Below are positions 4,475-48,799 of a stretch of DNA of 51,128 nucleotides, one piece after another; position 1 is the stretch's first letter; every line of letters begins with the position of its first letter. The notes beneath the pieces are model-generated. The model did no database searches, had not been told where the DNA came from, and saw only the letters and a program-made list of their open reading frames with translations. The DNA is taken from positions 1 through 51,128 of the forward strand of contig CAYWJO010000023.1 of NCBI GenBank assembly GCA_964458565.1, written 5' to 3'. Source of the DNA: an uncultured archaeon. GTDB taxonomy: Archaea > Asgardarchaeota > Thorarchaeia > Thorarchaeales > Thorarchaeaceae. Made by a program: the position numbers and the translations under genes.

Positions 4475-5311
4475 CTATTCTGGTACAAAGACTCCACTCA
4501 TAGTTGTCACTTCAAGCCCCTCTGTTCTGAGTCTCTTAACAAATGGCGCTATACCTACAGAATCAGAAGCAATATGTCCACTGGCAACAAGATTTCCGGA
4601 TTTGATATATTTTTCAAGCTCTTTCTTGTCTGTTTCTCCGATGTGCATATAGAATACTGTTGAGTAACCAGCATCAAAATATGCCTTTGCTACTCCTGCA
4701 CCGCCATTAGTGCCTCCAGCCATTGCTACAATCCATTTCCCCAAGAGATTTTCGGAGGAGCCAACGTATACGATGGGTTCAGTCATACCAAGTTTGAGTT
4801 CAGGAATTTCTTTCATGGCATTGAGAGCATCTTTAACTTGAGCGTTAGTGATGCTTTTTGTGCCTTGGGAAATTGCGTCTACGAACCTCCGTCTGCAAAT
4901 GAGATCTAATGGCAGATGAATATTCATGAAAGGTAGTTCTAGTAGTCTGGCAGCTGAAATTGTGTGGTCATAGTTACTCACATGAGCATTCATACGAGAA
5001 GAATCCACTCTAGGTTTGATCGCTTTCTCAGCAATGTGAGGAGGAATTCCAGCTTCAATCATCTGGTCAATTTGAGTGAGAACTACTTTGTCGAAGTTCA
5101 TTCGAGATGTCCCACCTGGTGGATGATGAGCGATTACTAAATCGTAATTTAATTGCTTAGCTAGTAATAGCTCAGGAGTTCCCATGTCGATTCCTATCAA
5201 CACTCGATGTACATCTTCACCAGGATAATGAATTCCACTATCACCAGGTATTTCATCTAGGTTAGCCATTTCCAATGCGATTTTCATGATAGTTTCAGTA
5301 TTCATTTTCAA
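4475..5311 (-). CDS. NIF3-like dinuclear metal-centre protein
   Basis: GID, DLVIAHHP, NIHLPLD and GHIASDSVG metal-ligand motifs. Confidence 0.7.
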   Translation of the reverse strand: MKMNTETIMKIALEMANLDEIPGDSGIHYPGEDVHRVLIGIDMGTPELLLAKQLNYDLVIAHHPPGGTSRMNFDKVVLTQIDQMIEAGIPPHIAEKAIKPRVDSSRMNAHVSNYDHTISAARLLELPFMNIHLPLDLICRRRFVDAISQGTKSITNAQVKDALNAMKEIPELKLGMTEPIVYVGSSENLLGKWIVAMAGGTNGGAGVAKAYFDAGYSTVFYMHIGETDKKELEKYIKSGNLVASGHIASDSVGIAPFVKRLRTEGLEVTTMSGVFVPE

Positions 5312-6298: not shown

Positions 6299-6691
6299 AT
6301 GGCAGTTTTTGAACTACTATTATTCGTTCTCTTTGCCTTGAACTTTGCTACAATGTTTAGCGGATTCATGTTGGCGAGGAGGATGGGCATGTATCTGATG
6401 ATGCAGGTCATGATGTTGATGTTGGCAATGTTCCTTGGTCTAGGTACACTTATCCTCGGACTAGTTGGATTCTACACGGGAGTTCAATTCGAGATACTAC
6501 ATCTTTTAATCTTGGGTAACTTTGTCTTCATTCTTCTTGCATTCCTTATGGAATTCGCACAAGTTGTACCAATACTGATGAAGACTATGCAAGGTGGGCC
6601 TATACACAGCTCACACATCACCAACCTTATTGTGACAATGTTCTATTCACTAGCGTTAGTCCTCTATTATGCTGGACTAGCCGTAATTTAG
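6299..6691 (+). CDS. Met-rich ~4-TM membrane protein of unknown function
   Basis: Four hydrophobic stretches; MGMYLMMQVMMLMLAM segment; 13 bp upstream of dsrE. Confidence 0.7.
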   Translation: MAVFELLLFVLFALNFATMFSGFMLARRMGMYLMMQVMMLMLAMFLGLGTLILGLVGFYTGVQFEILHLLILGNFVFILLAFLMEFAQVVPILMKTMQGGPIHSSHITNLIVTMFYSLALVLYYAGLAVI

Positions 6692-6704
6692 GAGATGAAA
6701 ATAA

Positions 6705-7070
6705 ATGGCAAGTCTATACATAATCGGACAATGGGGTCCCGAAGCAGCTGAAAGGTGTTACGGTCCTTTTGTAACCGGGACAACTGCTCAGGCACAAGAT
6801 GTTGAGAAAGTCAAGATATTCTTGATGATGGATGCAGTCTGGCTTATGAAGAAAGGCATTGCAGAGAAAATCAAAGCACCTGGTTTTCCACCACTTCCAG
6901 ATCTAATCGAAACTTTTCTTGAAGAAGGTGGCGAAATCGATGTCTGTTCCAATTCTGCTGAATTTAGAGGGCTAACTGAAGATACCCTGAGAGATAGCAG
7001 AATTGCAATAGCTGGTGCAGCTACTATGATAGATGATGTTCTCAATTACGATAGAACAATGACTTTCTAA
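6705..7070 (+). CDS. DsrE-family sulfur carrier/peroxiredoxin-like protein
   Basis: IFLMMDAVWL, GGEIDVCSNSAEFRG, AGAATMID; GGAG RBS upstream. Confidence 0.85.
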   Translation: MASLYIIGQWGPEAAERCYGPFVTGTTAQAQDVEKVKIFLMMDAVWLMKKGIAEKIKAPGFPPLPDLIETFLEEGGEIDVCSNSAEFRGLTEDTLRDSRIAIAGAATMIDDVLNYDRTMTF

Positions 7071-7188: not shown

Positions 7189-7488
7189 TCATATGGAGAT
7201 TACTTTGTCATATTTCTCCATGATCAAATCTACAATTTGTGAATAGTCGACTAGCTCCACACCATCAACAAGACGTGATGTAAGACCTCTTTCCTCAATG
7301 TGTTTTTTAGAAGCATGAATCTTGATTCCTTGGGAAAGGAGTATCTTTCCCTCTTCACATCCTTTATCCACCATAAATACGCCATCTTGAATTAAAAGAA
7401 TTCCAGCAGTTTCTCCAGATAGGTGAATGGCTTCAATAGTCTCTTCAAGATTTGTACAATCGCTTGATAACCAGATTAGATATTTCAT
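7189..7488 (-). CDS. tusB: DsrH/TusB-family protein
   Basis: ILLIQDGV, ASKKHIEERGL, VDYSQIVDLI. Confidence 0.85.
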   Translation of the reverse strand: MKYLIWLSSDCTNLEETIEAIHLSGETAGILLIQDGVFMVDKGCEEGKILLSQGIKIHASKKHIEERGLTSRLVDGVELVDYSQIVDLIMEKYDKVISI

Positions 7489-7499
7489 AGCATCATCTC

Positions 7500-7850
7500 C
7501 TAAAATGTTACAACTATCTCATTTTCAGATAATAGATTTCCAACAGATTCTGGGTCCAAAATCTCTACATTGTCTATTAACTCGGACGAATCGATAGACC
7601 GTTCATCCAGAGACTTCTTACTTGCACAGATTTTGCCATCGAAGCTTTCATACGTAGATTTGAACATCCTGATAGGTAGGTCTTTCATCTCTTTAAGCAG
7701 AGCATAGACTCCGTCACCCATAAAGAGAATTGTTGGTTCATGGTCCATTCCGAACATACCAATTGAGGTTCTCCAACCTTCAAAATTGAATATCTTTCCA
7801 TAGGGTTTGCTCCGAATTAAAATCAAAACGTTACGTTCTGTAAATTCCAT
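7500..7850 (-). CDS. tusC: DsrF/TusC-family protein
   Basis: RSKPYG..FEGWR, LFMGDGVYALLK, SLDERSI. Confidence 0.85.
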   Translation of the reverse strand: MEFTERNVLILIRSKPYGKIFNFEGWRTSIGMFGMDHEPTILFMGDGVYALLKEMKDLPIRMFKSTYESFDGKICASKKSLDERSIDSSELIDNVEILDPESVGNLLSENEIVVTF

Positions 7851-7861
7851 ATAATCAACTC

Positions 7862-8227
7862 CTACATCGCAAAAGTGATGAACCGTTCACTCTCTCCAAC
7901 TATCTCAGCTAATTCTGTTAGTCCAGTTACTTCAACTCCAGAAATGAAATCAGAACCTGTCTGATCAAAACCACGAGCAGATGTACACAATCCACATGCT
8001 TGGAATTCAACCCCTAAATTAGCTAGTTCTTGAAATCTATCATTCATCGGCACTTCGGGGTCGGGATCCTGATTCAATTTCGCGTTGTTGACGGCATCGA
8101 CGAAGAGAAAAACTTTAACACCGTATCCTTTCTCTACCGCTGCTTTTGTTAACTCATGGAATGTTTCACTGTTTTGATATGTATAGGGTGAGCTCAGGAG
8201 TAAAACGCCTAGTGTCTTTTTGTCCAA
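7862..8227 (-). CDS. tusD: DsrE/TusD-family sulfurtransferase
   Basis: SSPY, FLFVDAV, ACGLCTSARG with the conserved Cys, TGLTELAE. Confidence 0.88.
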   Translation of the reverse strand: MDKKTLGVLLLSSPYTYQNSETFHELTKAAVEKGYGVKVFLFVDAVNNAKLNQDPDPEVPMNDRFQELANLGVEFQACGLCTSARGFDQTGSDFISGVEVTGLTELAEIVGESERFITFAM

Positions 8228-8347: not shown

Positions 8348-8383
8348 AAAAAAAACAAAGAGGAGAGAGGGGTTAACCCTCTC
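8348..8383 (-). terminator. Hairpin + U-tract terminator of the giant surface-protein gene
   Basis: GAGAGGG-GTTAA-CCCTCTC (8365-8383) and A-tract 8348-8355 on the + strand. Confidence 0.65.
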
Positions 8384-8390
8384 AAATTGA

Positions 8391-11300
8391 CTATTTCCTA
8401 CGTCGTACTACCGCAACAGCAACTATCGCAATGACTGCAACTCCACCACCAATCATGATTAGAATTGCAACATTGTCATCACCAGATGGGGGTTGAGGCG
8501 TGGTTGATGTGAGCTCACCTTGGCCTACTATGTAGTGCTTTGTCTGACTATCGAAGTTACCATCAAAGGTGTATACCCTGATGAAATAGTCTACAAGGAC
8601 TCCATCAGCAGCTCCAGGAATATCAGCATAGTACCAATCTCCAATATTGGACATTGTAATCTGCTGCCATTCACCGCCATCAAATCTGTACCAGAGTTCA
8701 ACATAGTTGACTGTCACTGTTCCAGCGTAGATGTTTGCACTAACCTGGACAGGTTCATCAGCCTGAGGTATATCACCAGATATTCCCAAGCCTGAGAATA
8801 GAACTGTATCTTGAGTTCCAGATGTACCACGACTTGACACGTAACCCACAAATACTGGATCTTGGAAGACTGAAAAGCCATTCCATTCAGGGAATCCAAT
8901 TGTGACATAGTACTGTGTCGAAGCGAAAGCCCATGTTGTTGCACTCACGTACTGTTGATCCTCAGTCTGAGTACGTTCTGACTGATAGGCTGTAGTGAAG
9001 GTACTATATGGGGTGATTTGACTGGACACATTGTAGTAAGGCTGTGCTGAATTAGGACTTCCCCAAGTGTAGTTATCTCTGCCAAGAATCACCTCAGCAA
9101 ATGGAGCATCTTCTAGGAGAAATTCAAAGAAGTCTGAATCGAGGATTGTTAATGGTTCATTGCTGGTTGGAGATCCTGATTCATCATAAACGCTCCAAGT
9201 GTAATCCACAATGGTGACATCAGCATAGTAATTCAGAGCAAGAGATCTATTGGTTAATTTCCTTCTTGCTACCTCATCATCATAATTTGGCAGGTCCCAA
9301 TTACCAACATAGTTGTCTATCTTGATGTCAGCATAGTTGTTGATACTTTCACCGGTTGGATCGATATGTCCTTGGAAGGTCACGTCGAATGATAACTCAT
9401 CAATAGTTGCTCTGGTTGGACGCTGATCGAAGTCTTGGAAATCAGTTCCTGTGGCAACTCCGTCGTACCAGCCCCAATAACCATATGAGCAATAGGGGAA
9501 TAGAGTCCCATTCACATCAGTGAATGCCACACCCCAAGACACCTCTTCTTCAAGGTCCAGTGTTAGACTGTCCTGTAATTCATAGTTATCGAAAGCTTCT
9601 CCAGGTGTTGTGAAAACTATGTCATCTACCGAATCGGGCATGAAGAAGTGAGTTAATTCACCACCACCAAAGTCCTCGATAGACATTTCCATAACAGAGT
9701 TGTTGTTATCGTCATTCCATAACATCAAACCACTGTATTCGTACTGCATACCAAGACCAACCCAATGTTCACCGGTCTCATTGACAAAGGTTGTCCCATA
9801 GCTCTGTGAAATTGCGAAGGTTAACCAAGTCCAGCTCTGTTCCTCTTCAATCCAATCCCAGCCTTCAGCCTGAGCTTGAGCAAGAATATCAGCCCATGAA
9901 ACGTTAACGGCCATCCAAGAAATGTCCCAGTAACCAGGTCTAGGATCATCATCCTCATTAAAGAGTGTGTCCTTGATTGTTTCTAGTTCTGCAGTCCCAA
10001 CTCTAGTGAAATCTGAGGCATGATACCAGAAGAAAGTCTGACTCCATTGTGAACTCCATGAATAAGTCTGTTGACCCATCCATGAATCGATGTTCATCTC
10101 ATCACCATACTGGGTCCGATTTGGATCCCAACTGATATGGACATATAGTCGCTCATATGACTCAGCCCAAGTGTTAGTGGATTCATAGAGTTCCCGTACG
10201 TAGTATTGGTCTTCTTCTGTTTCCAAGTTACCATCCAAGTCAAGAGCACCATTTTCAGGATTTATGGTCCATGCTTTGATACCCCACATACCCCATTCCG
10301 GTGTTCCAACATAAAGGGAATGGAAGTTCTTATAGACCACACTTTGGATAGGTGTGGGTCCATAGACCATCGCATATCCCCAAGTGTTTCGAAGACGATG
10401 GATGTTCTCTAGATGGGGAACAGCAGTCACTTCTTCACCATGGTAGGTGAAATTATAGACTGGCTGAAAACCACTACCCCACATATCAATAAAGAGTTCA
10501 TAACTCGACGTTGAGTTGAATAGGAAATAACCCCATGTATATTGGTAGTCATGATTGAACACATACGATTCACCCATGAAGTCAAAGTTGTAGTAGCTTG
10601 AATTATAATAAGCAACAACTTTGAATGAATCCTCAAGGGGAAGAGGTTGATAGTACTCTAGGTAGATGAATGAACCATCGATAGTTCTGTAATAAAATAC
10701 AGTCTCATTACCTATCATATCTGAATATGGATACTGTTGGCCAGAATAGAATGTTGTCGCATTATAGAAATATTCATAGATTAGGAAGATGTAGGTCTCA
10801 TTTACACTGAATGTTGTGCCATTAGATGCAGTCAAATATGGATTACCATCGATCCAATTAGGATATGAATCCTCAAAGACAACACTTTCGTATTCATGGA
10901 ATTGTAGATTACTATCAAAAGTCCCCACACTGGTAGCAAGCCCAACCTGATATGGATTCCAAATTGCAGTCCCATTCACTTCTGTGTATGAGTTGTACAT
11001 GGCAAGTCCAATATCATAAATTGTCCCTCCAACGTTGATGTAATAGATTCCACCAACATCAAACGAGGGATACCATTTGTTGAGATACTGAACTGATTTG
11101 ATAGTTTGAACCATTCCACCTTCGCCGTCTATGTTCGCTAGGTGATAATATTCCTGAGCATTTGCTCCAGGATAAGGCATCTCATGTTCAACACCATCGA
11201 TTTCAGCAAACCAGAACCGATTAATTTGAGTTGATAACCATGCATCGCTGCCAAGATATTCACCAACAATGTATTCCCTTGGCCAAGACACAAGTCTCAT

Positions 11301-14198
11301 AGCGCCATCGATGTAAGCATGATACTCTCCACCTGATTCAGTAATTGGATAGGAATTCAGATTGATATCTGTCATGTAGTATCGATGAGAATTATAATCC
11401 CAATACCAGAAATCCAGTAAAGGAAGTATTCCATTGGTACCATAACGTACATAATATGAATAGTCCTGGTGGTTTATCTCTGTAATATCATAGAAGACTT
11501 TCGTCACGTATGGCTCTCCATGAGTATACCAATCACCCTGATGGATAGCTCCTTCGAGGTCAATCCAATAATAGAAGGATGTTACTCCATCATACCAATA
11601 GTAGGCGAATTCTTGAGCTGTTAGAAATGATTCACCAGCAGCTGTCACATTGTAGATGTATGCAGCTTCTGAGTAGGTGACATAGATTTTGGTTCCATTT
11701 TCCAACTCATAGAAGTAGACATCACGGTCCGTTACAGAGTCCCAGTGATCATAGAAGAAGAATTCCTTCCATACATTACTAGAGTACGGATCATATCTTT
11801 CTCGAACTTTGAGCGGATACCGGTCTCCATCAATTACTATGTAAGGACGCTCTTCTCCTTTCAGATAGTCAGATCCCTCATTGGTATTCAGAACAGAATT
11901 ATAGAATGAAAGTTTTGAATGATCAATTGAATCGACATACACCTTCTCTGTTTGATAATCAAAAGAGTAGACCCACTCCCGTCCCCAACTTAGGATTTCA
12001 TGATCACCATAACCACTTGTATAGTCTTGATACCAGGTATTATTCATGAAAGCAAAATTCCACCAGTACTCAGTGTCTGGAACAGACTCATCCAAACTCA
12101 CTAAGAAGGATACGTAGAGGTCTCCATCGTCGGTCCAGTTATTGAGAGAACCAATTGTTGCGAATGACGCGGGAATACGAGTGTCAGCTGATCTATACTC
12201 AGGAGAATTTTCTTGCCACTCTTGGGTGCGTTGGTTATAGTAATACCACTGCTCGTGGAATCCCTCAACTTCAGTGAAAACCCAATCCCAGCGCTCACGC
12301 ATTTCTCCTGCTTCGGTATCAAAGTAGGTATAGCTGGTATAAACATACTCATTGTAGGTGCCATATGTGATATTCCATTTTTCCGTTCTATTGAAAGCAT
12401 CTAGTTCATAGGAACCATCCAGATTATAGACAACCTGATAATACACAGTTGACCATCGAGATTCAGTTTCAGTCCAGTAGCCATCCGATGCATCCAATGT
12501 GAATTGAACTGCGTCAATATCATTTGCAATTGATGCACCACCTTGAAGGCGGCCACGAACCATGAAATTCTCTCCTTTATCGACTGAGAATATCCAATCA
12601 TCATGTTCAGAGCCATCTTCTCTGAGAATTCTAGCAATTGTCACAGGTGTGTCAATCGCGATTTGTTTGGCAAGTTGGTACTGTGCTTCAGTTTGACGGG
12701 CGTTATCACCATATGTATCTGGATTATACCACCAATTGTCAGGACCTCTGACTTCATCATTAAACTGAAGATATGAATAAGTTTCAGTCTTTGGCATCAG
12801 ATCTGTGAAGTGACCAGCGAAATCAACAACTAGATTTCCGCCAATTGTCCGCACATTACAAAGAGGCAGATTCAACTCATAAAAGATTTGAGCATCGGTA
12901 ATAGGTTCGAAAACCGTTACTTCTTCGTCCCAAGTATCGGGAATCCAAGTTTCAAAGGGATAGGTATAGAATGAATATCCATAGAATGTGTTGAATGAAT
13001 CAGTAGTGGAATTCCAGATGAACATGAATTCCTTTTCAATCCACATTGTGTCTGTGACTACTTCATAGACGGAGCCGGTCCAGTTCAACCAGCGATGTTC
13101 TACTTCAGCCATTGAACCTGTATCTGTCCCTTGACGAGTCTTGTACGGACCGAATACATCTTTCATGTAGGTTACTTCGACCATTTCATCCCAGACATAA
13201 GTTTTGAGGGTTTCATCAAAAATCCATCCTCCATATGCAGTTACAGGTTCCATGTGCCATCCAGTTATAATTACTTCAGTATCCATCCAAGAGGGAATTC
13301 TGAAACCTAACTTGACATATTCAGGAGTGCTACCAGTTATGTTGAACCGCATGAGGAAATCTTTGTTTCGGCTTACCGAATAAAGTTCATCGCCCTCCAA
13401 GTCTAATTTCTGAAGGGTATAGCTCGAGTCCCATGTGTATTTGAAAGCGTCATCAGGACGCATTCCAACTGATAAGTAATTCGGGGTCCAATCAGTAGCG
13501 TAATTGCGGGAATCATAGTAATTCCATTCGTTATCCATAACATTAAGGTTAACCTCAAAGAGACCTAAAGGTGCGTCACTCGTGAATGAAATTACAAAAT
13601 TGACATAGTTATTAAAATCATCAGAGTTATTGAAGCACTCTGCAGAATAGATATTTACAAATGGATCCTCAGGATAAACGGGTCCTTCTCCACCCATTTC
13701 ATATTGGTATGCATACGCACTCCATTCCTGGTATCCATCATTAGGTCGCCAGCTTACATCGAAAGAGGCGTAGAAATCATCGGGCGATAGGAACCATCCA
13801 TTAAAACGAACTTCCTCAAGGTATAGACCCTTCGGGATCAAATCATTTGGAATGATTGTTGTTATCGTCAATTTCTCATTTATTTCTGCATAATGATTAT
13901 CTTTGAATTGGGTTCCATTCTCATGTGCAATTACATAAGATGGCGTTGGTCCGAACAACCAATGTGAATTATCCGAATCCCATGTTTCATTATGCTGATC
14001 ACTACTCTGCTCCCACCAAACATAAGTTCCGTTAGTAGTTTCTTGACTTGGAACTTGTTGGTTGGGTGCAGGATAAGATTTCTCCAGACCATTGGTAGCA
14101 TTCAAGGGTGCTGTTGAACCTCCATAGCTAAGAGAAATCATGAATAGCAAAACCATGATTACAGACATGGTTTTTGCAAGATTAATCGGGTTATGCAT
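8391..14198 (-). CDS. Giant (1935 aa) secreted, C-terminally anchored cell-surface glycoprotein
   Basis: N-terminal signal peptide, W/Y/D-rich beta-rich body, many NxS/T sequons, T/P linker, TM helix followed by RRRK. Confidence 0.85.
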   Translation of the reverse strand: MHNPINLAKTMSVIMVLLFMISLSYGGSTAPLNATNGLEKSYPAPNQQVPSQETTNGTYVWWEQSSDQHNETWDSDNSHWLFGPTPSYVIAHENGTQFKDNHYAEINEKLTITTIIPNDLIPKGLYLEEVRFNGWFLSPDDFYASFDVSWRPNDGYQEWSAYAYQYEMGGEGPVYPEDPFVNIYSAECFNNSDDFNNYVNFVISFTSDAPLGLFEVNLNVMDNEWNYYDSRNYATDWTPNYLSVGMRPDDAFKYTWDSSYTLQKLDLEGDELYSVSRNKDFLMRFNITGSTPEYVKLGFRIPSWMDTEVIITGWHMEPVTAYGGWIFDETLKTYVWDEMVEVTYMKDVFGPYKTRQGTDTGSMAEVEHRWLNWTGSVYEVVTDTMWIEKEFMFIWNSTTDSFNTFYGYSFYTYPFETWIPDTWDEEVTVFEPITDAQIFYELNLPLCNVRTIGGNLVVDFAGHFTDLMPKTETYSYLQFNDEVRGPDNWWYNPDTYGDNARQTEAQYQLAKQIAIDTPVTIARILREDGSEHDDWIFSVDKGENFMVRGRLQGGASIANDIDAVQFTLDASDGYWTETESRWSTVYYQVVYNLDGSYELDAFNRTEKWNITYGTYNEYVYTSYTYFDTEAGEMRERWDWVFTEVEGFHEQWYYYNQRTQEWQENSPEYRSADTRIPASFATIGSLNNWTDDGDLYVSFLVSLDESVPDTEYWWNFAFMNNTWYQDYTSGYGDHEILSWGREWVYSFDYQTEKVYVDSIDHSKLSFYNSVLNTNEGSDYLKGEERPYIVIDGDRYPLKVRERYDPYSSNVWKEFFFYDHWDSVTDRDVYFYELENGTKIYVTYSEAAYIYNVTAAGESFLTAQEFAYYWYDGVTSFYYWIDLEGAIHQGDWYTHGEPYVTKVFYDITEINHQDYSYYVRYGTNGILPLLDFWYWDYNSHRYYMTDINLNSYPITESGGEYHAYIDGAMRLVSWPREYIVGEYLGSDAWLSTQINRFWFAEIDGVEHEMPYPGANAQEYYHLANIDGEGGMVQTIKSVQYLNKWYPSFDVGGIYYINVGGTIYDIGLAMYNSYTEVNGTAIWNPYQVGLATSVGTFDSNLQFHEYESVVFEDSYPNWIDGNPYLTASNGTTFSVNETYIFLIYEYFYNATTFYSGQQYPYSDMIGNETVFYYRTIDGSFIYLEYYQPLPLEDSFKVVAYYNSSYYNFDFMGESYVFNHDYQYTWGYFLFNSTSSYELFIDMWGSGFQPVYNFTYHGEEVTAVPHLENIHRLRNTWGYAMVYGPTPIQSVVYKNFHSLYVGTPEWGMWGIKAWTINPENGALDLDGNLETEEDQYYVRELYESTNTWAESYERLYVHISWDPNRTQYGDEMNIDSWMGQQTYSWSSQWSQTFFWYHASDFTRVGTAELETIKDTLFNEDDDPRPGYWDISWMAVNVSWADILAQAQAEGWDWIEEEQSWTWLTFAISQSYGTTFVNETGEHWVGLGMQYEYSGLMLWNDDNNNSVMEMSIEDFGGGELTHFFMPDSVDDIVFTTPGEAFDNYELQDSLTLDLEEEVSWGVAFTDVNGTLFPYCSYGYWGWYDGVATGTDFQDFDQRPTRATIDELSFDVTFQGHIDPTGESINNYADIKIDNYVGNWDLPNYDDEVARRKLTNRSLALNYYADVTIVDYTWSVYDESGSPTSNEPLTILDSDFFEFLLEDAPFAEVILGRDNYTWGSPNSAQPYYNVSSQITPYSTFTTAYQSERTQTEDQQYVSATTWAFASTQYYVTIGFPEWNGFSVFQDPVFVGYVSSRGTSGTQDTVLFSGLGISGDIPQADEPVQVSANIYAGTVTVNYVELWYRFDGGEWQQITMSNIGDWYYADIPGAADGVLVDYFIRVYTFDGNFDSQTKHYIVGQGELTSTTPQPPSGDDNVAILIMIGGGVAVIAIVAVAVVRRRK

Positions 14199-14340
14199 TA
14201 TTAATTCTCCCTAGCGCTACCTCAGGACTAGGGCTGCGATTTCTCACACACAAACCATTTCGAGGTAGCGTTATACCTTACGCTAACTGAATATATTCGC
14301 AATATGGTTCGGTGTGTGGCATAGTCCATGAGGCGAATTC
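14199..14340 (-). promoter_or_regulatory. Long structured 5' leader with alternative SD-sequestering helices (riboswitch-like)
   Basis: Inverted repeats 14219-14230/14322-14334, 14245-14258/14304-14318, 14266-14271/14280-14285; competing pairs 14215-14223/14262-14270 and 14209-14214/14228-14233; SD GGGAG at 14207-14211. Confidence 0.6.
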
Positions 14341-14452
14341 AAACCTGTATATTAGAAAATTTCATAATAAGCATTTGTCGTCTGTCCCCGATGAGTGGTT
14401 GCAGGTAAGATTGAAAAGCAACGACCAGATTGAAATATCAAGGTGAACCCAC

Positions 14453-15523
14453 GTGTGTGATGTCGTTCTAAAATACACAATGAAAGATAGAACTGGCGAA
14501 ATAGAGATTGATGAAGATGTAGGAGTTTTAGACCTTACACATAAGGGAATCATCGAAATAGATCTGGCACCTATCACAAAATGTACTCATTTGGAAGGCA
14601 TTCTATTAGATCGTAATAAACTAGAAGAAATTGACCTGACACCCATCCGTGCATTGTCTAACCTGATTGAGATTGGATTGTCAAGAAACCAATTTACTGA
14701 GATCAATCTTGAGCCGCTTTCTAATGCATCAAATCTGGAAGTTCTAAATCTGGGTAATAATGAACTTCAGTCGATAGACTTGGCACCAATCAAAGGCATG
14801 ACGAACCTCAAGCGGCTAAGATTGCTCAACAATGGTTTAACTAAGATTGATATTGGAGTACTCGCGAATTGTGGAAATCTAGAGATTCTAGAAATTGAGA
14901 ACAATGGATTTACATCTATAAATCTGAAACCACTAGAAAATTGTAAAAACTTGACACAACTGAATTTAATGTACAATGAATTATCTTCAATCGATTTAAC
15001 ACCGCTTTCATCATGCTCCGATTTAACCAATCTATATTTACATCAAAACAAACTTGAAGCGATTGATTTGACACCATTATCCTCATGCATCGGTCTCAAA
15101 ATCCTGAGACTGGGAGGAAATCAACTTACCACCTTAGATTTGGAACCATTATCAACGTGTTTGAATCTCAGAAGATTGGGACTCGCACTAAACGGGTTAG
15201 AGGAAATTGATCTTACTCCACTGGGAAATACCAAGCAGCTGATAGCATTAGATATAGCTCGCAATCGATTGAAGGAAATTGACCTAACTCCACTAGGTAA
15301 GTGTAAGGAACTCGAGGAACTCTTCTTATGGAGCGAGCATGATGAAGAGATGAATGAATTCGAAGTAATTGACCTGTCCCCGCTATTTAAGTGTGAGAAT
15401 CTTGAGGATATCAGCGTTCCTAGTTCAGCACGCTTAACTGCCAAAGCAGCTCTAGAGAACAAAAAGGAGATACCTTGGGCAATTGAGGATCTCATTGATA
15501 ATGATAGAATCGACTGGGAGTAA
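14453..15523 (+). CDS. Leucine-rich repeat protein (22-aa internalin-like repeats)
   Basis: About 13 repeats of LxxLxLxxNxLxxIDLxPLxxCxx. Confidence 0.92.
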   Translation: MCDVVLKYTMKDRTGEIEIDEDVGVLDLTHKGIIEIDLAPITKCTHLEGILLDRNKLEEIDLTPIRALSNLIEIGLSRNQFTEINLEPLSNASNLEVLNLGNNELQSIDLAPIKGMTNLKRLRLLNNGLTKIDIGVLANCGNLEILEIENNGFTSINLKPLENCKNLTQLNLMYNELSSIDLTPLSSCSDLTNLYLHQNKLEAIDLTPLSSCIGLKILRLGGNQLTTLDLEPLSTCLNLRRLGLALNGLEEIDLTPLGNTKQLIALDIARNRLKEIDLTPLGKCKELEELFLWSEHDEEMNEFEVIDLSPLFKCENLEDISVPSSARLTAKAALENKKEIPWAIEDLIDNDRIDWE

Positions 15524-19631: not shown

Positions 19632-20939
19632 CTAACTCCTGACCTTCATCAGGTTCTTAACTGAATTTTCAATTCCAGTCAATGTAAATTCAATATCTTC
19701 CGCCACATGGGAAAACGATAGCGCACCCAATCCATGATATCCAAAAACGCGCTCCTGCATTAGGTAGCTTTGGAAGATATCCTGCTGATGATGGTCAAAG
19801 AGCTTGCCAAGTTGACCCGGGCTGATCAGTGGCCTATCAAGTTCACCAGAGAGACAGCTGATGAAATTGATTGAACCATATCCTGTACCTATGAGTGGTA
19901 CTTCCATCTCACGCAGCATTTCGTTAAGCCGTTCTCTGAATTCATCACCCATCTTATTCAACCGAGGGAATTCCTTCTTCATATTCTGTAATTGTTCTAG
20001 AACGGCTAATCCTGCAGTCATTGTCAGGGGATGACTTGAGAATGTCCCGCCTCCAACCCATCGACCACCCTTAAAGCCTGGCGATGCTAGATTCATGATA
20101 TCTTCGCGGCCACCATAGACGCCAAGAGGCATCCCTCCGGCTGCAGCTTTACCAAGAGTGACTAAATCTGGTTGCACTCCAAATATCATATCTCCAGCGG
20201 TTCCATACCTAAGACGAAATCCTGTAATTATCTCATCAAATATGAGTATAATACTCCTTGATTCAGTTTCTTCACGTAGATAATTAAGAAATCCAGCTTC
20301 GGGGGGGATACCACCTCCAGCTCCAATGATTGGTTCAACAATCACAGCTGCTAATTCTTTTCCATATGCTTTAAGCATTTTATCAAGACTATCTCGGTCA
20401 TTATAGTCAAACGAAACCCCGTTATAGAAGGGACCATCAGTATATGGATGACTCATGTGATATGTAAGAGCGTCATTCCCTCCATGCCATCCACCAAGTG
20501 TCTTTGCAACCAAATTACGCCCCGTAAACAACCTTGAGAGTCTAACCGCATACATAGTGGATTCGCTACCTGTAGAAGTAAATCGCATCTTCTCAAGGAG
20601 TGGTATTGCTTCTTTGAGTTTCTCACCATACTCCACTTGTGGTTGATTGGGTGCTCCAAAATGAACGCCAGATTCAAGCTGTTCAGAGATTCTTTTCTTC
20701 ACCTCAGGGTTATTATGTCCCAAAATCTGAGAATAATGTGTCATCCACCAATCAATGTATTCGTTGCCATCAACATCCCAGATGTGCCCTCCCTCTCCAC
20801 GAGAGATGTAAGGGGGATAAGCATCATTCGATGTAAGTCCAAATTGACGGATGTTATGACTTACGCCACCGGGAAAAAGGTTCGTAGCTCTATACCATAA
20901 CTGTCTTGATTTCTCTGTTGACTTCAAATATCGCTCCAT
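19632..20939 (-). CDS. Class III PLP aminotransferase (glutamate-1-semialdehyde aminomutase-like)
   Basis: PGGVSHNIR, WDVDGNEYID, FDEIITGFR, DLVTLGK; start placed at ATG 20939 (GGAG RBS), which removes the overlap with the upstream gene. Confidence 0.88.
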   Translation of the reverse strand: MERYLKSTEKSRQLWYRATNLFPGGVSHNIRQFGLTSNDAYPPYISRGEGGHIWDVDGNEYIDWWMTHYSQILGHNNPEVKKRISEQLESGVHFGAPNQPQVEYGEKLKEAIPLLEKMRFTSTGSESTMYAVRLSRLFTGRNLVAKTLGGWHGGNDALTYHMSHPYTDGPFYNGVSFDYNDRDSLDKMLKAYGKELAAVIVEPIIGAGGGIPPEAGFLNYLREETESRSIILIFDEIITGFRLRYGTAGDMIFGVQPDLVTLGKAAAGGMPLGVYGGREDIMNLASPGFKGGRWVGGGTFSSHPLTMTAGLAVLEQLQNMKKEFPRLNKMGDEFRERLNEMLREMEVPLIGTGYGSINFISCLSGELDRPLISPGQLGKLFDHHQQDIFQSYLMQERVFGYHGLGALSFSHVAEDIEFTLTGIENSVKNLMKVRS

Positions 20940-33309: not shown

Positions 33310-36077
33310 TACTCCCTTAGAATGTCAATTCGTTCCTCTGAAAATCGAGCCGCATTTATCACGGGAATCAAGGCGGCAAGAACCACTCCAAAAACGATAG
33401 CAAGCATACTCACGATTGAAATAGGTGTCAGAATAATTTGTGGTCTGATTATTGAGGAAGAACTCTCCACGGTGTTTGATATATCACCAAACAGCTGGAT
33501 GAATCCTGTTGCAGTTCCTAATATCAAAGAAAAGAGAACCAGGACCATAACTTCTCCAGCAAGTACTGTGAGTGTTTGTCGCCAATTGAATCCTCTCACT
33601 CCTAGAAGAGTTGTTTCATACTGTTTCTCTCTCAAAGTCAATGTGATTACAAGCAATGTTCCGACAATGGCTAGAACAGCGGCAAATGTGACCCCAAGCA
33701 ATCTAGCCCTAGTCCCTCCGACTTGATAACTACTCTCTTGAGCTGCAGCGACTCTAGAAGTGAATGAATCGGTACTCTCGACTTGGGGGAACATTGATTC
33801 AACCTCAGATTCAAGAAGTGTTCCATTAACACTTGGCTCAGTGTTGACTAATACATGACCTTCTGCATAATTGATGAGACCTGTATCTTCCAAGAAATCT
33901 ATTGGGACATATGACTGATATGAACCACCGAAGGCAAATTGACCAATAATTCCCTCAAAGAGACTAGGATATCCAACAAATCCAATTATCTCCATTCTAT
34001 GTATATCACTCGCACTTGTACCTCGTAGAGTGATGAAGTTACCAACTCTAAGATCTAGTTGTCTTGCCACACTGAGAGAGAGCAAGATCTTGTTACCAGT
34101 GAAATTGGAAAAGAGTTCATCAAGCGTATCATATGAGAACCATATGTCTTCGTAGTATGCTGAATCTCGCCAATTGGATGTGTTAATACCTCGAACACCA
34201 AGCCCACTTCTTGTACTAGACATGGTGAGTCTATATTCAACAGTCAAACTCTCAACACCCTCGAGGTCTTGGATTGTATCAACCACAGAGGTCAGATTCT
34301 CACCAGATGAGAATGTAGCACTGAAGTCAGCTCCAACTGCGAACAAATGATCACGTTCGAGTCGGTCGTTCTCAGTAAAGAGAATTCCTACACTATAGAC
34401 ACCATAAGAGACTATGAGTGATATCACAAATACTAATGCCGCATTACGTACGGGATTCCGCTTTACATTCCTAGTGGAGAGTTTACCAAAAGCTCCAAAG
34501 ATTCGCACTCCTGCATTCATAACACTTTCTTGGAATTTTTCTGAGCCTTTCAGAAGAATTTTTGTTATTCCATATAAGAAGAGTATTGGTCCAGCAAAAT
34601 TGAGAAATGCATCGATTGGACTCCAAATTGCTACAACAATCAAAAGAATGAAGTTTGTACTTAAAGCAGCAGACAAGAGAGTTGAAATACTTATTCCAAG
34701 TGCCCAGACTATAATCTTGTATGTTCCAAGCACAAGTGCAATCGTAGGTAGTAGACGTTTATACTGTCTTTGTTCCTCAATGTATACGTACTGTTTCAGA
34801 CTATCAAGTGGATCTAATTTTGACGCTCGATCAGCTGGACCTCGTACAGACCAGATTGAAATGATTAGTGAGAAGAGGACCACCACAATTGCATTGACAG
34901 GATTTCGTAAAATTACACCCAATGGATCAGTCAATGGAACATTTACCACGATGTGTCCGAATACAACACCCAACACTAATCCTAGAACTCCACCAATAAT
35001 ACCAATTATCGCACCCTCAAACAATAGCATTCTCTTGATAGATTTTGGTGCAATACCTCTGGTTTGTAATAATCCAAATTCTCTGCGTCTAAGATTGTAA
35101 CTTACGTCACTCAACATTGTTGATGAATACCAAGCCATGAATAGTATTGGTACAGCCTGTACTACAAACGTAAGAACGAGAACAGTGGACGCCAACGAAG
35201 CAAATGTCAGTGTGGTACTCACCAGATTAGTTACCCGTGTGTTATAAGCCGCAGTACGATCTTCTATTTTCGAAACCGCATTAGCAATGTTTGTCGAAGA
35301 CCCTCCAATGTCAAAGGGATTTATCAGGATATCACGATTCAGCTGACAAACAAAACCACTAGTTTCTAACATCCTTGTTGTATTAGCTAAATTCGTGTAG
35401 TATTCGAGTAGAGGTTTAAATGTCAAATCCCAATCAGCTAGAAGTAAGTTGTAATTTCTCCCGTTATCCATCTCGAATTGGATAAAGCCCAAATCTATTA
35501 CAGTAGGTGGATGTAGAAGTCTAGCTGTCTGCTCAGAGATGTCTACATATCCAGCAATAGTAAGATTCACATAAATCGTCTTAGGAAAGGGAGAATCAGT
35601 TGTGAGAATCCGAACAGGAACGTGGATTGTTTCACCACTAGATAATTTTGATGCGTTCACAGAACTTGATACAATATAGGTCTCATTTGCTTGTAGGGTT
35701 AAAGAACCATTGACATGTTGAAGACCTTCCCATATTGCTGTATAAGTTTCAAGTCCTACAATTTCAAACGACTGTCCTAGCGTACTATTGTGAGTATAGG
35801 TGATTTTTGTAAATCTATCAGCAGAATTGACCTCAGGCAACTCCTCAATAATATCTTGTAATGCATCAAACTGAGGAATGGTCCATGTGATGTTATTTTC
35901 TTGAACTCGTGCATCATAATCAATTCCCTCAAGTGCATCACTGAGACTACTTGATGTCAAAACATCAGCTGAAACTAGCATGCTAGCGAAAAAAGTGGAA
36001 GCAATGAGTACACCAATAGTGAGAGACAGGAAAATCTTGTATGAGCGTGCTACTCGTTTTAGCGCGTATTTGAACAT
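33309..36077 (-). CDS. FtsX/MacB-type ABC permease (duplicated)
   Basis: RRREFGLLQTRG and REKQYETTLLGVRG motifs, two large extracytoplasmic domains. Confidence 0.9.
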   Translation of the reverse strand: MFKYALKRVARSYKIFLSLTIGVLIASTFFASMLVSADVLTSSSLSDALEGIDYDARVQENNITWTIPQFDALQDIIEELPEVNSADRFTKITYTHNSTLGQSFEIVGLETYTAIWEGLQHVNGSLTLQANETYIVSSSVNASKLSSGETIHVPVRILTTDSPFPKTIYVNLTIAGYVDISEQTARLLHPPTVIDLGFIQFEMDNGRNYNLLLADWDLTFKPLLEYYTNLANTTRMLETSGFVCQLNRDILINPFDIGGSSTNIANAVSKIEDRTAAYNTRVTNLVSTTLTFASLASTVLVLTFVVQAVPILFMAWYSSTMLSDVSYNLRRREFGLLQTRGIAPKSIKRMLLFEGAIIGIIGGVLGLVLGVVFGHIVVNVPLTDPLGVILRNPVNAIVVVLFSLIISIWSVRGPADRASKLDPLDSLKQYVYIEEQRQYKRLLPTIALVLGTYKIIVWALGISISTLLSAALSTNFILLIVVAIWSPIDAFLNFAGPILFLYGITKILLKGSEKFQESVMNAGVRIFGAFGKLSTRNVKRNPVRNAALVFVISLIVSYGVYSVGILFTENDRLERDHLFAVGADFSATFSSGENLTSVVDTIQDLEGVESLTVEYRLTMSSTRSGLGVRGINTSNWRDSAYYEDIWFSYDTLDELFSNFTGNKILLSLSVARQLDLRVGNFITLRGTSASDIHRMEIIGFVGYPSLFEGIIGQFAFGGSYQSYVPIDFLEDTGLINYAEGHVLVNTEPSVNGTLLESEVESMFPQVESTDSFTSRVAAAQESSYQVGGTRARLLGVTFAAVLAIVGTLLVITLTLREKQYETTLLGVRGFNWRQTLTVLAGEVMVLVLFSLILGTATGFIQLFGDISNTVESSSSIIRPQIILTPISIVSMLAIVFGVVLAALIPVINAARFSEERIDILRE

Positions 36078-48313: not shown

Positions 48314-48799
48314 TTATGGACGATTTCTAATTATCAGCACTATGAATACAACGATTACAACAGCGGAACCAACGGTTATTAACACACTCACAACCATCCA
48401 AGTTCCACCTTGCGACCACCATGGTTCAGTAGTACTAACATTACTTGTTGTGCTCACTTCAGATGTTTCATGTGCTGTTGTTGTGAAGTTGATTGGAACA
48501 GTCGTATTGGACGGATTTACAGTGAGTGTTGTTGGTGCCGTAGGAGTTGAAGTGCTTTCTGTGATTGAGGTTGGTGGAGTATTGTCGAATCCAAATTCCA
48601 GAGAGATTTCATCTACAAAAACAGGAATGAGAGGGTCAGATCCATATCTTGCATATGCAAGTGCAACATATGCAATTGTGCGGTCCTTCTCACTCTCAGA
48701 AAGCGTTGTAATGAAATTGTGTCCTAATCCCTCAAGGTCTATACGTTGCGGGAAAGCGATGACAAATTGGTGACAAATTATAGAAGTTAAGTATAGCAT
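48314..48799 (-). CDS. Ser/Thr-rich linker + TM anchor; possibly the C-terminal remnant of a surface protein
   Basis: T/S/P-rich stalk, TM helix, RNRP tail; no clear signal peptide. Confidence 0.5.
   Translation of the reverse strand: MLYLTSIICHQFVIAFPQRIDLEGLGHNFITTLSESEKDRTIAYVALAYARYGSDPLIPVFVDEISLEFGFDNTPPTSITESTSTPTAPTTLTVNPSNTTVPINFTTTAHETSEVSTTSNVSTTEPWWSQGGTWMVVSVLITVGSAVVIVVFIVLIIRNRP

Follow-up and report, generated by a model that had tools for sequence, protein, structure and literature searches.

The spacer upstream of the gene for a 1935-aa surface protein in an uncultured Thorarchaeaceae archaeon encodes what is, judged from its predicted fold and its conservation, an undescribed, Thorarchaeota-specific structured 5' leader of the surface-protein mRNA. 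The leader folds into a long rod that ends just 5' of the Shine-Dalgarno (SD) sequence, and it is conserved in shape and position more than in sequence among orthologous genes of the family. This conservation, established in silico, supports a structured leader or stabiliser. With slightly better than even confidence, the rod is read as a conserved, constitutively folded element of the 5' untranslated region (UTR) that would act as an mRNA stabiliser, as an insulator of the ribosome-binding site (RBS), or as both.

Structure of the leader and its gene

The sequence analysed, referred to here as the window, comprises positions 1-51,128 (51,128 nt) of contig CAYWJO010000023.1 from assembly GCA_964458565.1. 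The host genome is 3.7 Mb in size and belongs to Candidatus Thorarchaeota, as indicated by the source names of its database relatives. On the minus strand, the spacer contains, in order, the TATA-like box CTTATTAT, an A/U-rich segment of approximately 30 nt, 116 nt of self-complementary sequence, AGCGCUA, the SD sequence GGGAG, 8 nt and the ATG (Table 1). The initial annotation of this DNA had described a long, strongly structured leader ahead of the giant surface-protein gene, built from a helix P1, a helix P2 and an apical hairpin, together with GGGAG 8 nt 5' of the ATG at 14198 and a TATA-like box suited to a transcription start near 14340. All of the named helices were recovered at their positions, as was the SD sequence, and the box (TTATTA, 14370-14365) lies where such a predicted start would require it.

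Table 1 Features of the leader and its surroundings (positions in the window; paired strands separated by a slash).
Feature	Position	Strand	Remarks
Intergenic spacer	14199-14453 (255 nt)	minus	between the 1935-aa open reading frame and the divergent leucine-rich-repeat gene
TATA-like box CTTATTAT	14364-14371	minus	counterpart of the orthologues' conserved CTTATATT box
Predicted transcription start and short single-stranded 5' tail	14335-14345	minus	inferred from TATA geometry and box-to-rod spacing
Unbranched rod (P1, 3-bp step, P2, apical hairpin)	14219-14334 (116 nt)	minus	ViennaRNA fold
P1, 5' strand GCCUCA-U-GGACUA	14322-14334	minus	occupies the site of most orthologues' GCGCGCC clamp
P1, 3' strand UAGUCCUGAGGU	14219-14230	minus	ends 7 nt before GGGAG, 8 nt before the GGAG core
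Step UGC/GCA (3 bp)	between P1 and P2	minus
P2, CACACAC-C-GAACCAU / AUGGUUUGUGUGUG	14318-14304 / 14258-14245	minus
Apical hairpin UAGCGU/ACGCUA	14285-14280 / 14271-14266	minus
9-bp alternative helix CGCUACCUC / GAGGUAGCG	14270-14262 / 14223-14215	minus	exact complement
SD-covering alternative CCCUAG/CUAGGG	14233-14228 / 14214-14209	minus	exact complement
SD sequence GGGAG	14207-14211	minus	8 nt 5' of the start codon
Start codon ATG	14196-14198	minus	from orthologue N-termini
1935-aa surface-protein gene	8391-14198	minus	signal-like N-terminus; C-terminal transmembrane helix
Terminator-like hairpin GAGAGGG-UUAAC-CCCUCUC, then UUUG and a U8 run	8348-8383	minus	read from the sequence; directly after the stop codon
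Divergent leucine-rich-repeat gene	14453-15523	plus	LRR_8, E 6e-36
Tandem ~2400-aa paralogue loci in relatives	G019:C10, G009:C3, G023:C130, G013:C108, G008:C6, G011:C80, G041:C1, G004:C31

In the ViennaRNA prediction, a 151-nt stretch covering the leader has a folding energy of -43.1 kcal/mol (z -2.95), and the rod alone reaches -42.0 kcal/mol (z -4.55); in both cases, none of 200 shuffles folded as well. Among 6802 windows of 120 nt taken from both strands of the 51-kb window, the rod ranks sixth in stability. Equally stable 120-nt windows (-41 to -43 kcal/mol) lie at 20079-20198 (minus), 48324-48443 (minus) and 4801-4920 (plus). In this genome, the rod is closed by a 12-bp P1. Downstream of the rod, a T/U run is absent (the sequence there is AGCGCUAGGGAGAAUUAAUAAUG), which rules out an intrinsic terminator or attenuator. 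The leader sequence is single in its own 3.7-Mb genome, with the window itself as the sole full match, and a repeated palindromic element of the MITE-like or REP-like kind is ruled out by the single copy per genome. The rod also contains a 33-codon upstream open reading frame on the minus strand (AUG at 14329, stop codon UAG at 14230-14228); because it has neither an SD sequence nor a counterpart among the orthologous leaders, it is probably meaningless.

Archaeal TATA boxes lie approximately 24-30 nt from the transcription start. With this spacing, the leader is predicted to be ~143-147 nt long, and the rod would lie near the 5' end of the transcript behind a predicted tail of ~6-12 nt. The box-to-rod distance in the window is 37 nt, compared to an orthologue median of 40 nt (interquartile range, IQR, 35-46). 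A second A/T box, TAATATA at 14353-14347, could put a start inside P1. With respect to translation, the ATG at 14198 (1935 aa) is supported as the true start over the Met-11 chosen by the gene caller (P0002, 1925 aa; position 14168). It is preferred because of the orthologue N-termini, its charged n-region and its SD sequence: the orthologues start about 10 residues ahead of the hydrophobic signal segment, and the gene-caller start has neither an SD sequence nor a charged n-region. The anti-SD sequence was taken from two family relatives, whose 16S rRNA ends in ...GGAUCACCUCCU, approximately the complement of the SD sequence seen in the orthologues, as the host genome contains no assembled 16S gene.

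The encoded protein ends in RRRK after its C-terminal transmembrane helix, contains 30 N-X-S/T sequons and is rich in Tyr (9.1%) and Trp (4.2%). A Pfam search with this protein returned no family match and a protein atlas search no usable match; database entries related to it are named as hypothetical proteins from Candidatus Thorarchaeota, the nearest of which is 46% identical. Both the label "S-layer" for this protein and its abundance are unproven. Cultured Asgard relatives from the Lokiarchaeia lack an ordered S-layer and display many surface proteins (PMC9834061, PMC11284389). The gene looks monocistronic because a terminator-like hairpin and a U8 run stand directly 3' of its stop codon.

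No curated RNA family accounts for the leader. An Rfam cmscan search of positions 13700-15000 with E values up to 10 yielded two hits, both noise (one miRNA family and one lncRNA family), the whole window gave none at gathering thresholds, and tRNA and tmRNA genes are absent from the window. Together with the failure to find a paper on it in the literature, this result supports the description of the element as undescribed, in agreement with the initial annotation.

Conservation among orthologous leaders

Of 60 genomes sampled from the family, 46 yielded an orthologue of approximately 1950 aa, as did 22 of the 23 high-quality ones, with identities of 31-49% over the first 700 residues. The collections searched contain no same-genus genome, and a BLAST search with the leader against 40 relatives detected no DNA-level homologue. 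The comparison was made on 38 orthologous upstream regions. In these regions, a CTTATATT box stands at -138 +/- 5 from the start codon in a conserved promoter context, and the rod begins a median of 40 nt 3' of this box. The rods span a median of 87 nt (~29 bp), 82% are unbranched, and the rod in the window is the longest. Their 3' ends fall -3 to +2 nt (IQR) from a GGAG-type SD sequence, which resembles GGAGAUGAU and is of the GGAG(A/G)UGAU type. A hairpin followed by a T-run precedes the TATA box in 21 of the 38 loci, which fits a transcription unit that starts at this box. A JGI contig that carries an orthologue begins 23 nt 5' of the ATG.

The closing helix reads GCGCGCC/GGCGCGC in ~25 of the 38 leaders. 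A closing helix of quite different sequence takes the equivalent place in the window (GCCUCAUGGACUA/UAGUCCUGAGGU) and in six or more further lineages, for example AGAGUGA/UCACUCA, CGCCGCC/GGCUGCG or GGCGCUC/GAGCGCU. The rod interiors cannot be aligned between genera and contain no invariant columns across the 38 leaders, yet they still fold. The distant homologues that occur in a few other Asgard families (26-29% identity) lack a rod, their leaders being short or rich in A, and no comparable rod was found at a ~2400-aa paralogue or at a second, ~1940-aa paralogue. In many relatives, the ~2400-aa paralogue lies in tandem, 6-7 kb 5' of the ~1950-aa gene, with a TATA box and a long leader of its own. 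With this protein as the query, only one copy was found in the genome of the window.

Several tests argue for conserved structure. The strict definition of a rod (one hairpin spanning at least 70 nt, with at least 20 bp and a 3' end -4 to +8 nt from the SD sequence) describes 27 of the 38 leaders, as compared with 16% of dinucleotide shuffles. The mean minimum free energy (MFE) z score is -1.45 in the leaders versus -0.32 in coding windows of the same loci. Furthermore, the 16-nt segment before each SD sequence pairs better with the 5' region of its own leader (-14.9 kcal/mol) than with those of other lineages (-11.7 kcal/mol), a preference that was equalled in 0 of 20,000 permutations. When only lineages that lack the canonical clamp were compared, among them the window, it was equalled in 1 of 20,000, and P1 of the window pairs with itself at -18.1 kcal/mol versus -9.4 to -17.1 kcal/mol with the 5' regions of other genera. 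There is helix-level covariation of the closing helix across lineages. Paired columns are less variable than unpaired columns in all ten groups of close relatives, and within these genera a pair had undergone a double compensatory change in 16 cases, had changed on one side only in 37 and was broken in 41.

When the clamp region was searched for with a covariance model, each genome gave exactly one match, invariably lying immediately 5' of the orthologue, which shows the element to be gene-specific and single-copy. The clamp-only model (R1) recovers 31 orthologue leaders and misses the diverged leader of the window; its weak hits in the window (35912-36017, E 1.3; 6626-6706, E 5.1) were taken as noise. 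Formal column-wise covariation is weak. In the canonical clamp, it is not significant (52 of 500 shuffles reach the observed pairing) because this clamp is both conserved in sequence and palindromic. Consensus folding with MAFFT and RNAalifold predicts no pairs for all 38 leaders and only the clamp for seven same-genus leaders (one of them mis-trimmed); the interiors are unalignable by sequence.

Proposed function of the leader

The preferred explanation is a static leader. Transcription would start ~25-30 nt 3' of the strongly conserved TATA box, and after a tail of ~6-12 nt the RNA would fold into one long, mostly unbranched rod. At its base, the rod would be held by a stable closing helix (the 12-bp P1 here, a G+C clamp in most genera) that would stop within a few nucleotides of the SD sequence. 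Such a static rod would act after transcription: by blocking attack at the 5' side, it could make a presumably heavily used mRNA longer-lived, and it could also isolate the RBS from upstream RNA. The arrangement found is that of a stabiliser, with a stable stem-loop in the leader and the RBS outside it, just 3' of the rod. Classic bacterial 5' stabilisers allow a shorter 5' tail than the ~6-12 nt predicted here. A plain stabiliser would also leave the sequence conservation of GCGCGCC and a CGCCAC-like apical motif unaccounted for, both of which hint at specific recognition.

These same features keep alive the main rival to the stabiliser reading, in which a lineage-specific RNA-binding protein or small RNA would dock on the rod, reading the G+C clamp beside the SD sequence and a C/A-rich apical loop, and would thereby control translation or decay of the mRNA. 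The clamp sequence is kept in ~25 of the 38 leaders despite fully diverged interiors, whereas the window and the other clamp-lacking lineages have replaced this sequence entirely and kept the helix. The central part of 11 of 25 representative rods contains CCAC (p ~0.02), and 7 of 25 contain CGCCA or GCCAC (p ~0.007), mostly unpaired; this enrichment is modest and was found post hoc, and about half of the rods have no such motif. Examples of the C/A-rich apical motif (CGCCAC, CCACC, CCACAC) occur in leaders L035, L041, L044, L062, L064 and L066; the related GCCACACACC of the window sits within the P2 stem, not at the apex. Unpaired positions are poor in G (13%, versus 32% in stems). The binding partner is hypothetical, and we regard the docking platform as a tentative alternative that falls well short of probable. 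An extended form of this proposal is more doubtful. Here, a lineage-specific factor would read clamp and apical loop in a dedicated Thorarchaeota regulatory platform that sets surface-protein synthesis, and in the genus of the window, in which the clamp is replaced and the rod lengthened, the leader could adopt two states by means of the exact 9-bp alternative helix, for instance if transcription also began inside P1.

It is unlikely that the conservation acts at the level of DNA, with GCGCGC boxes or an inverted repeat binding a transcription regulator 3' of the promoter and the RNA fold as a by-product. GCGCGC is its own reverse complement, such that two direct copies mimic an RNA helix, and sliding the clamp partner by +/-2 still leaves 56-60% of the cells paired. 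The sense and antisense strands also fold about equally well (p 0.24). However, lineages without a GCGCGC box keep a closing helix at the equivalent place, and the interior of 70-100 nt is likewise self-complementary in a lineage-specific manner with compensatory changes, which protein binding sites do not need. In addition, G-U pairs are somewhat more common on the sense strand (3.05 versus 2.37, p 0.08).

Quite unlikely is a role as a processing substrate, in which a double-strand-specific or 5' end-dependent nuclease would yield a mature 5' end, a stable leader small RNA, or both. A long, near-perfect 5' helix and a co-conserved strong promoter lend it general plausibility, but the folds contain no bulge-helix-bulge or other known archaeal cleavage motif, and the positions of their internal loops and bulges vary.

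Alternative pairings in the leader

The initial annotation had offered two functions for the leader, a stabiliser and a riboswitch-like translational switch with mutually exclusive, SD-sequestering helices. As described above, a conserved static leader fits the data best, and the first of these stands. For the second, the 3' strand of P1 would re-pair apically (CGCUACCUC/GAGGUAGCG) and CCCUAG/CUAGGG would mask the SD sequence, in response to a ligand-type signal or to temperature. Both pairings do exist as exact complements, and no other uninterrupted Watson-Crick stretch in the leader is as long as the 9-bp helix. These helices, specific to the window, were judged by their energies. The penalty is +8.6 kcal/mol for a fold constrained to the 9-bp helix (pair probability ~0) and +3.6 kcal/mol for one constrained to CCCUAG/CUAGGG (probability 0.004), which makes both energetically negligible, and the rod stays the MFE structure from 15 to 60 C. 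Pairing between the 3' strand and the interior in the window is slightly above that of shuffles (z -1.46), a value that 7% of them equal.

The orthologues likewise show no switch-like feature. In 37-38 leaders, neither the complementarity of the SD sequence to the leader interior nor that of the 3' clamp strand plus SD sequence to the rod interior is enriched (mean z 0.00 for each). Nor is there a conserved outer helix that would join the 5' tail to the SD-ATG spacer (p 0.40). The predicted accessibility of the SD sequence, calculated for the leader with 40 coding nucleotides attached, is 0.30 compared to 0.33 with shuffled flanks (p 0.41). As this accessibility is no higher than in shuffles, exposure of the SD sequence by the rod is unsupported, and selection is apparent neither for masking the SD sequence nor for exposing it. 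The lack of a U-run, of a conserved multi-helix core and of any switch signal argues against a riboswitch or thermometer.

Assignment to a known class of riboswitch or RNA thermometer was rejected on similar grounds. For riboswitches, no curated aptamer matched even at E values up to 10, and the unbranched rod of variable length has no invariant core, no aptamer-type conserved junction or loop, and no conserved SD-hiding or terminator platform. For RNA thermometers of the ROSE or fourU type, the SD sequence lies 3' of the rod, its accessibility equals that of controls, and the rod persists over the temperatures given above. In silico, a riboswitch-like or thermosensing translational switch is thus largely refuted, and we consider it very improbable.

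Comparison with known leaders

To our knowledge, post-transcriptional control in Asgard archaea is almost unexplored, no cis-acting mRNA element has been described from them, and there is no cultured Thorarchaeon. The element described here is a family-wide, gene-specific RNA structure with defined boundaries (promoter, rod, clamp and SD sequence), and the gene that it precedes encodes a conserved giant surface protein without a name in any database. If this protein is a major envelope component, the leader would mark a strongly and carefully expressed gene. At ~100-145 nt, the element is compact and testable in tractable archaea.

Structured leaders of surface-protein mRNAs are already known from bacteria and from Methanosarcina, and the present finding extends this theme. 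By analogy, the closest counterparts of the Thorarchaeota leader would be those of slpA and slmA1. In Lactobacillus, the stem-loop of the slpA 5' UTR is reported to stabilise the mRNA (half-life ~15 min), and truncation lowers expression (PMC10221546). The two leaders share a strong promoter, a long stem-loop, an RBS outside the stem and a surface-protein gene. In contrast to slpA, the Thorarchaeota rod belongs to another domain of life, has no sequence relation to it, is much longer (~87-116 nt), and has a predicted tail of ~6-12 nt and a sequence-conserved G+C clamp. Moreover, stabilisation is reported for slpA, whereas that by the Thorarchaeota rod is inferred, and the predicted exposure of its SD sequence is no better than chance.

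The slmA1 gene for the major S-layer protein of Methanosarcina has a TATA box and a mapped leader of 154-159 nt that is conserved between species, predicted to be structured and of unknown role (PMC3361143). Here too, an archaeal surface-protein gene is combined with a TATA box and a leader of similar length (~143-147 nt predicted in the window). The Methanosarcina UTRs are >91% identical, in contrast to the Thorarchaeota leaders, whose shape and position are kept despite diverging interiors. The slmA1 transcription start was mapped experimentally and that of the Thorarchaeota gene is predicted; homology of either the protein or the leader is not expected. Long 5' UTRs are also described as stabilising the methanogen mtaA and mtaC mRNAs in work cited in PMC5378194. 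With riboswitches and with ROSE and fourU thermometers, the leader shares the property of being a cis-acting structured 5' RNA beside an SD sequence. It differs from them in having no Rfam match, no multi-helix core, an SD sequence outside the rod and no conserved alternative pairing.

Neighbouring features

The divergent leucine-rich-repeat gene probably starts at the GTG at 14453, with AAGGTGA 6 nt upstream. Between the two divergent genes, the A/T box TTCATAATAAGC / GCTTATTATGAA (14362-14373) could serve as a TATA box in both directions. Directly 3' of the surface-protein gene, three small DsrE/DsrF/DsrH-like (TusBCD-type) genes occupy 7189-8227 on the minus strand; the initial annotation lists this trio as a sulfur-relay cluster. 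Finally, among the 16S genes of relatives (L077 in G049, L078 in G019 and L079 in G009), the match spans 2.4 kb in G009, and those of G019 and G049 depart from the model just before the 3' end. This observation suggests the presence of insertions, possibly introns, in Thorarchaeota 16S genes.
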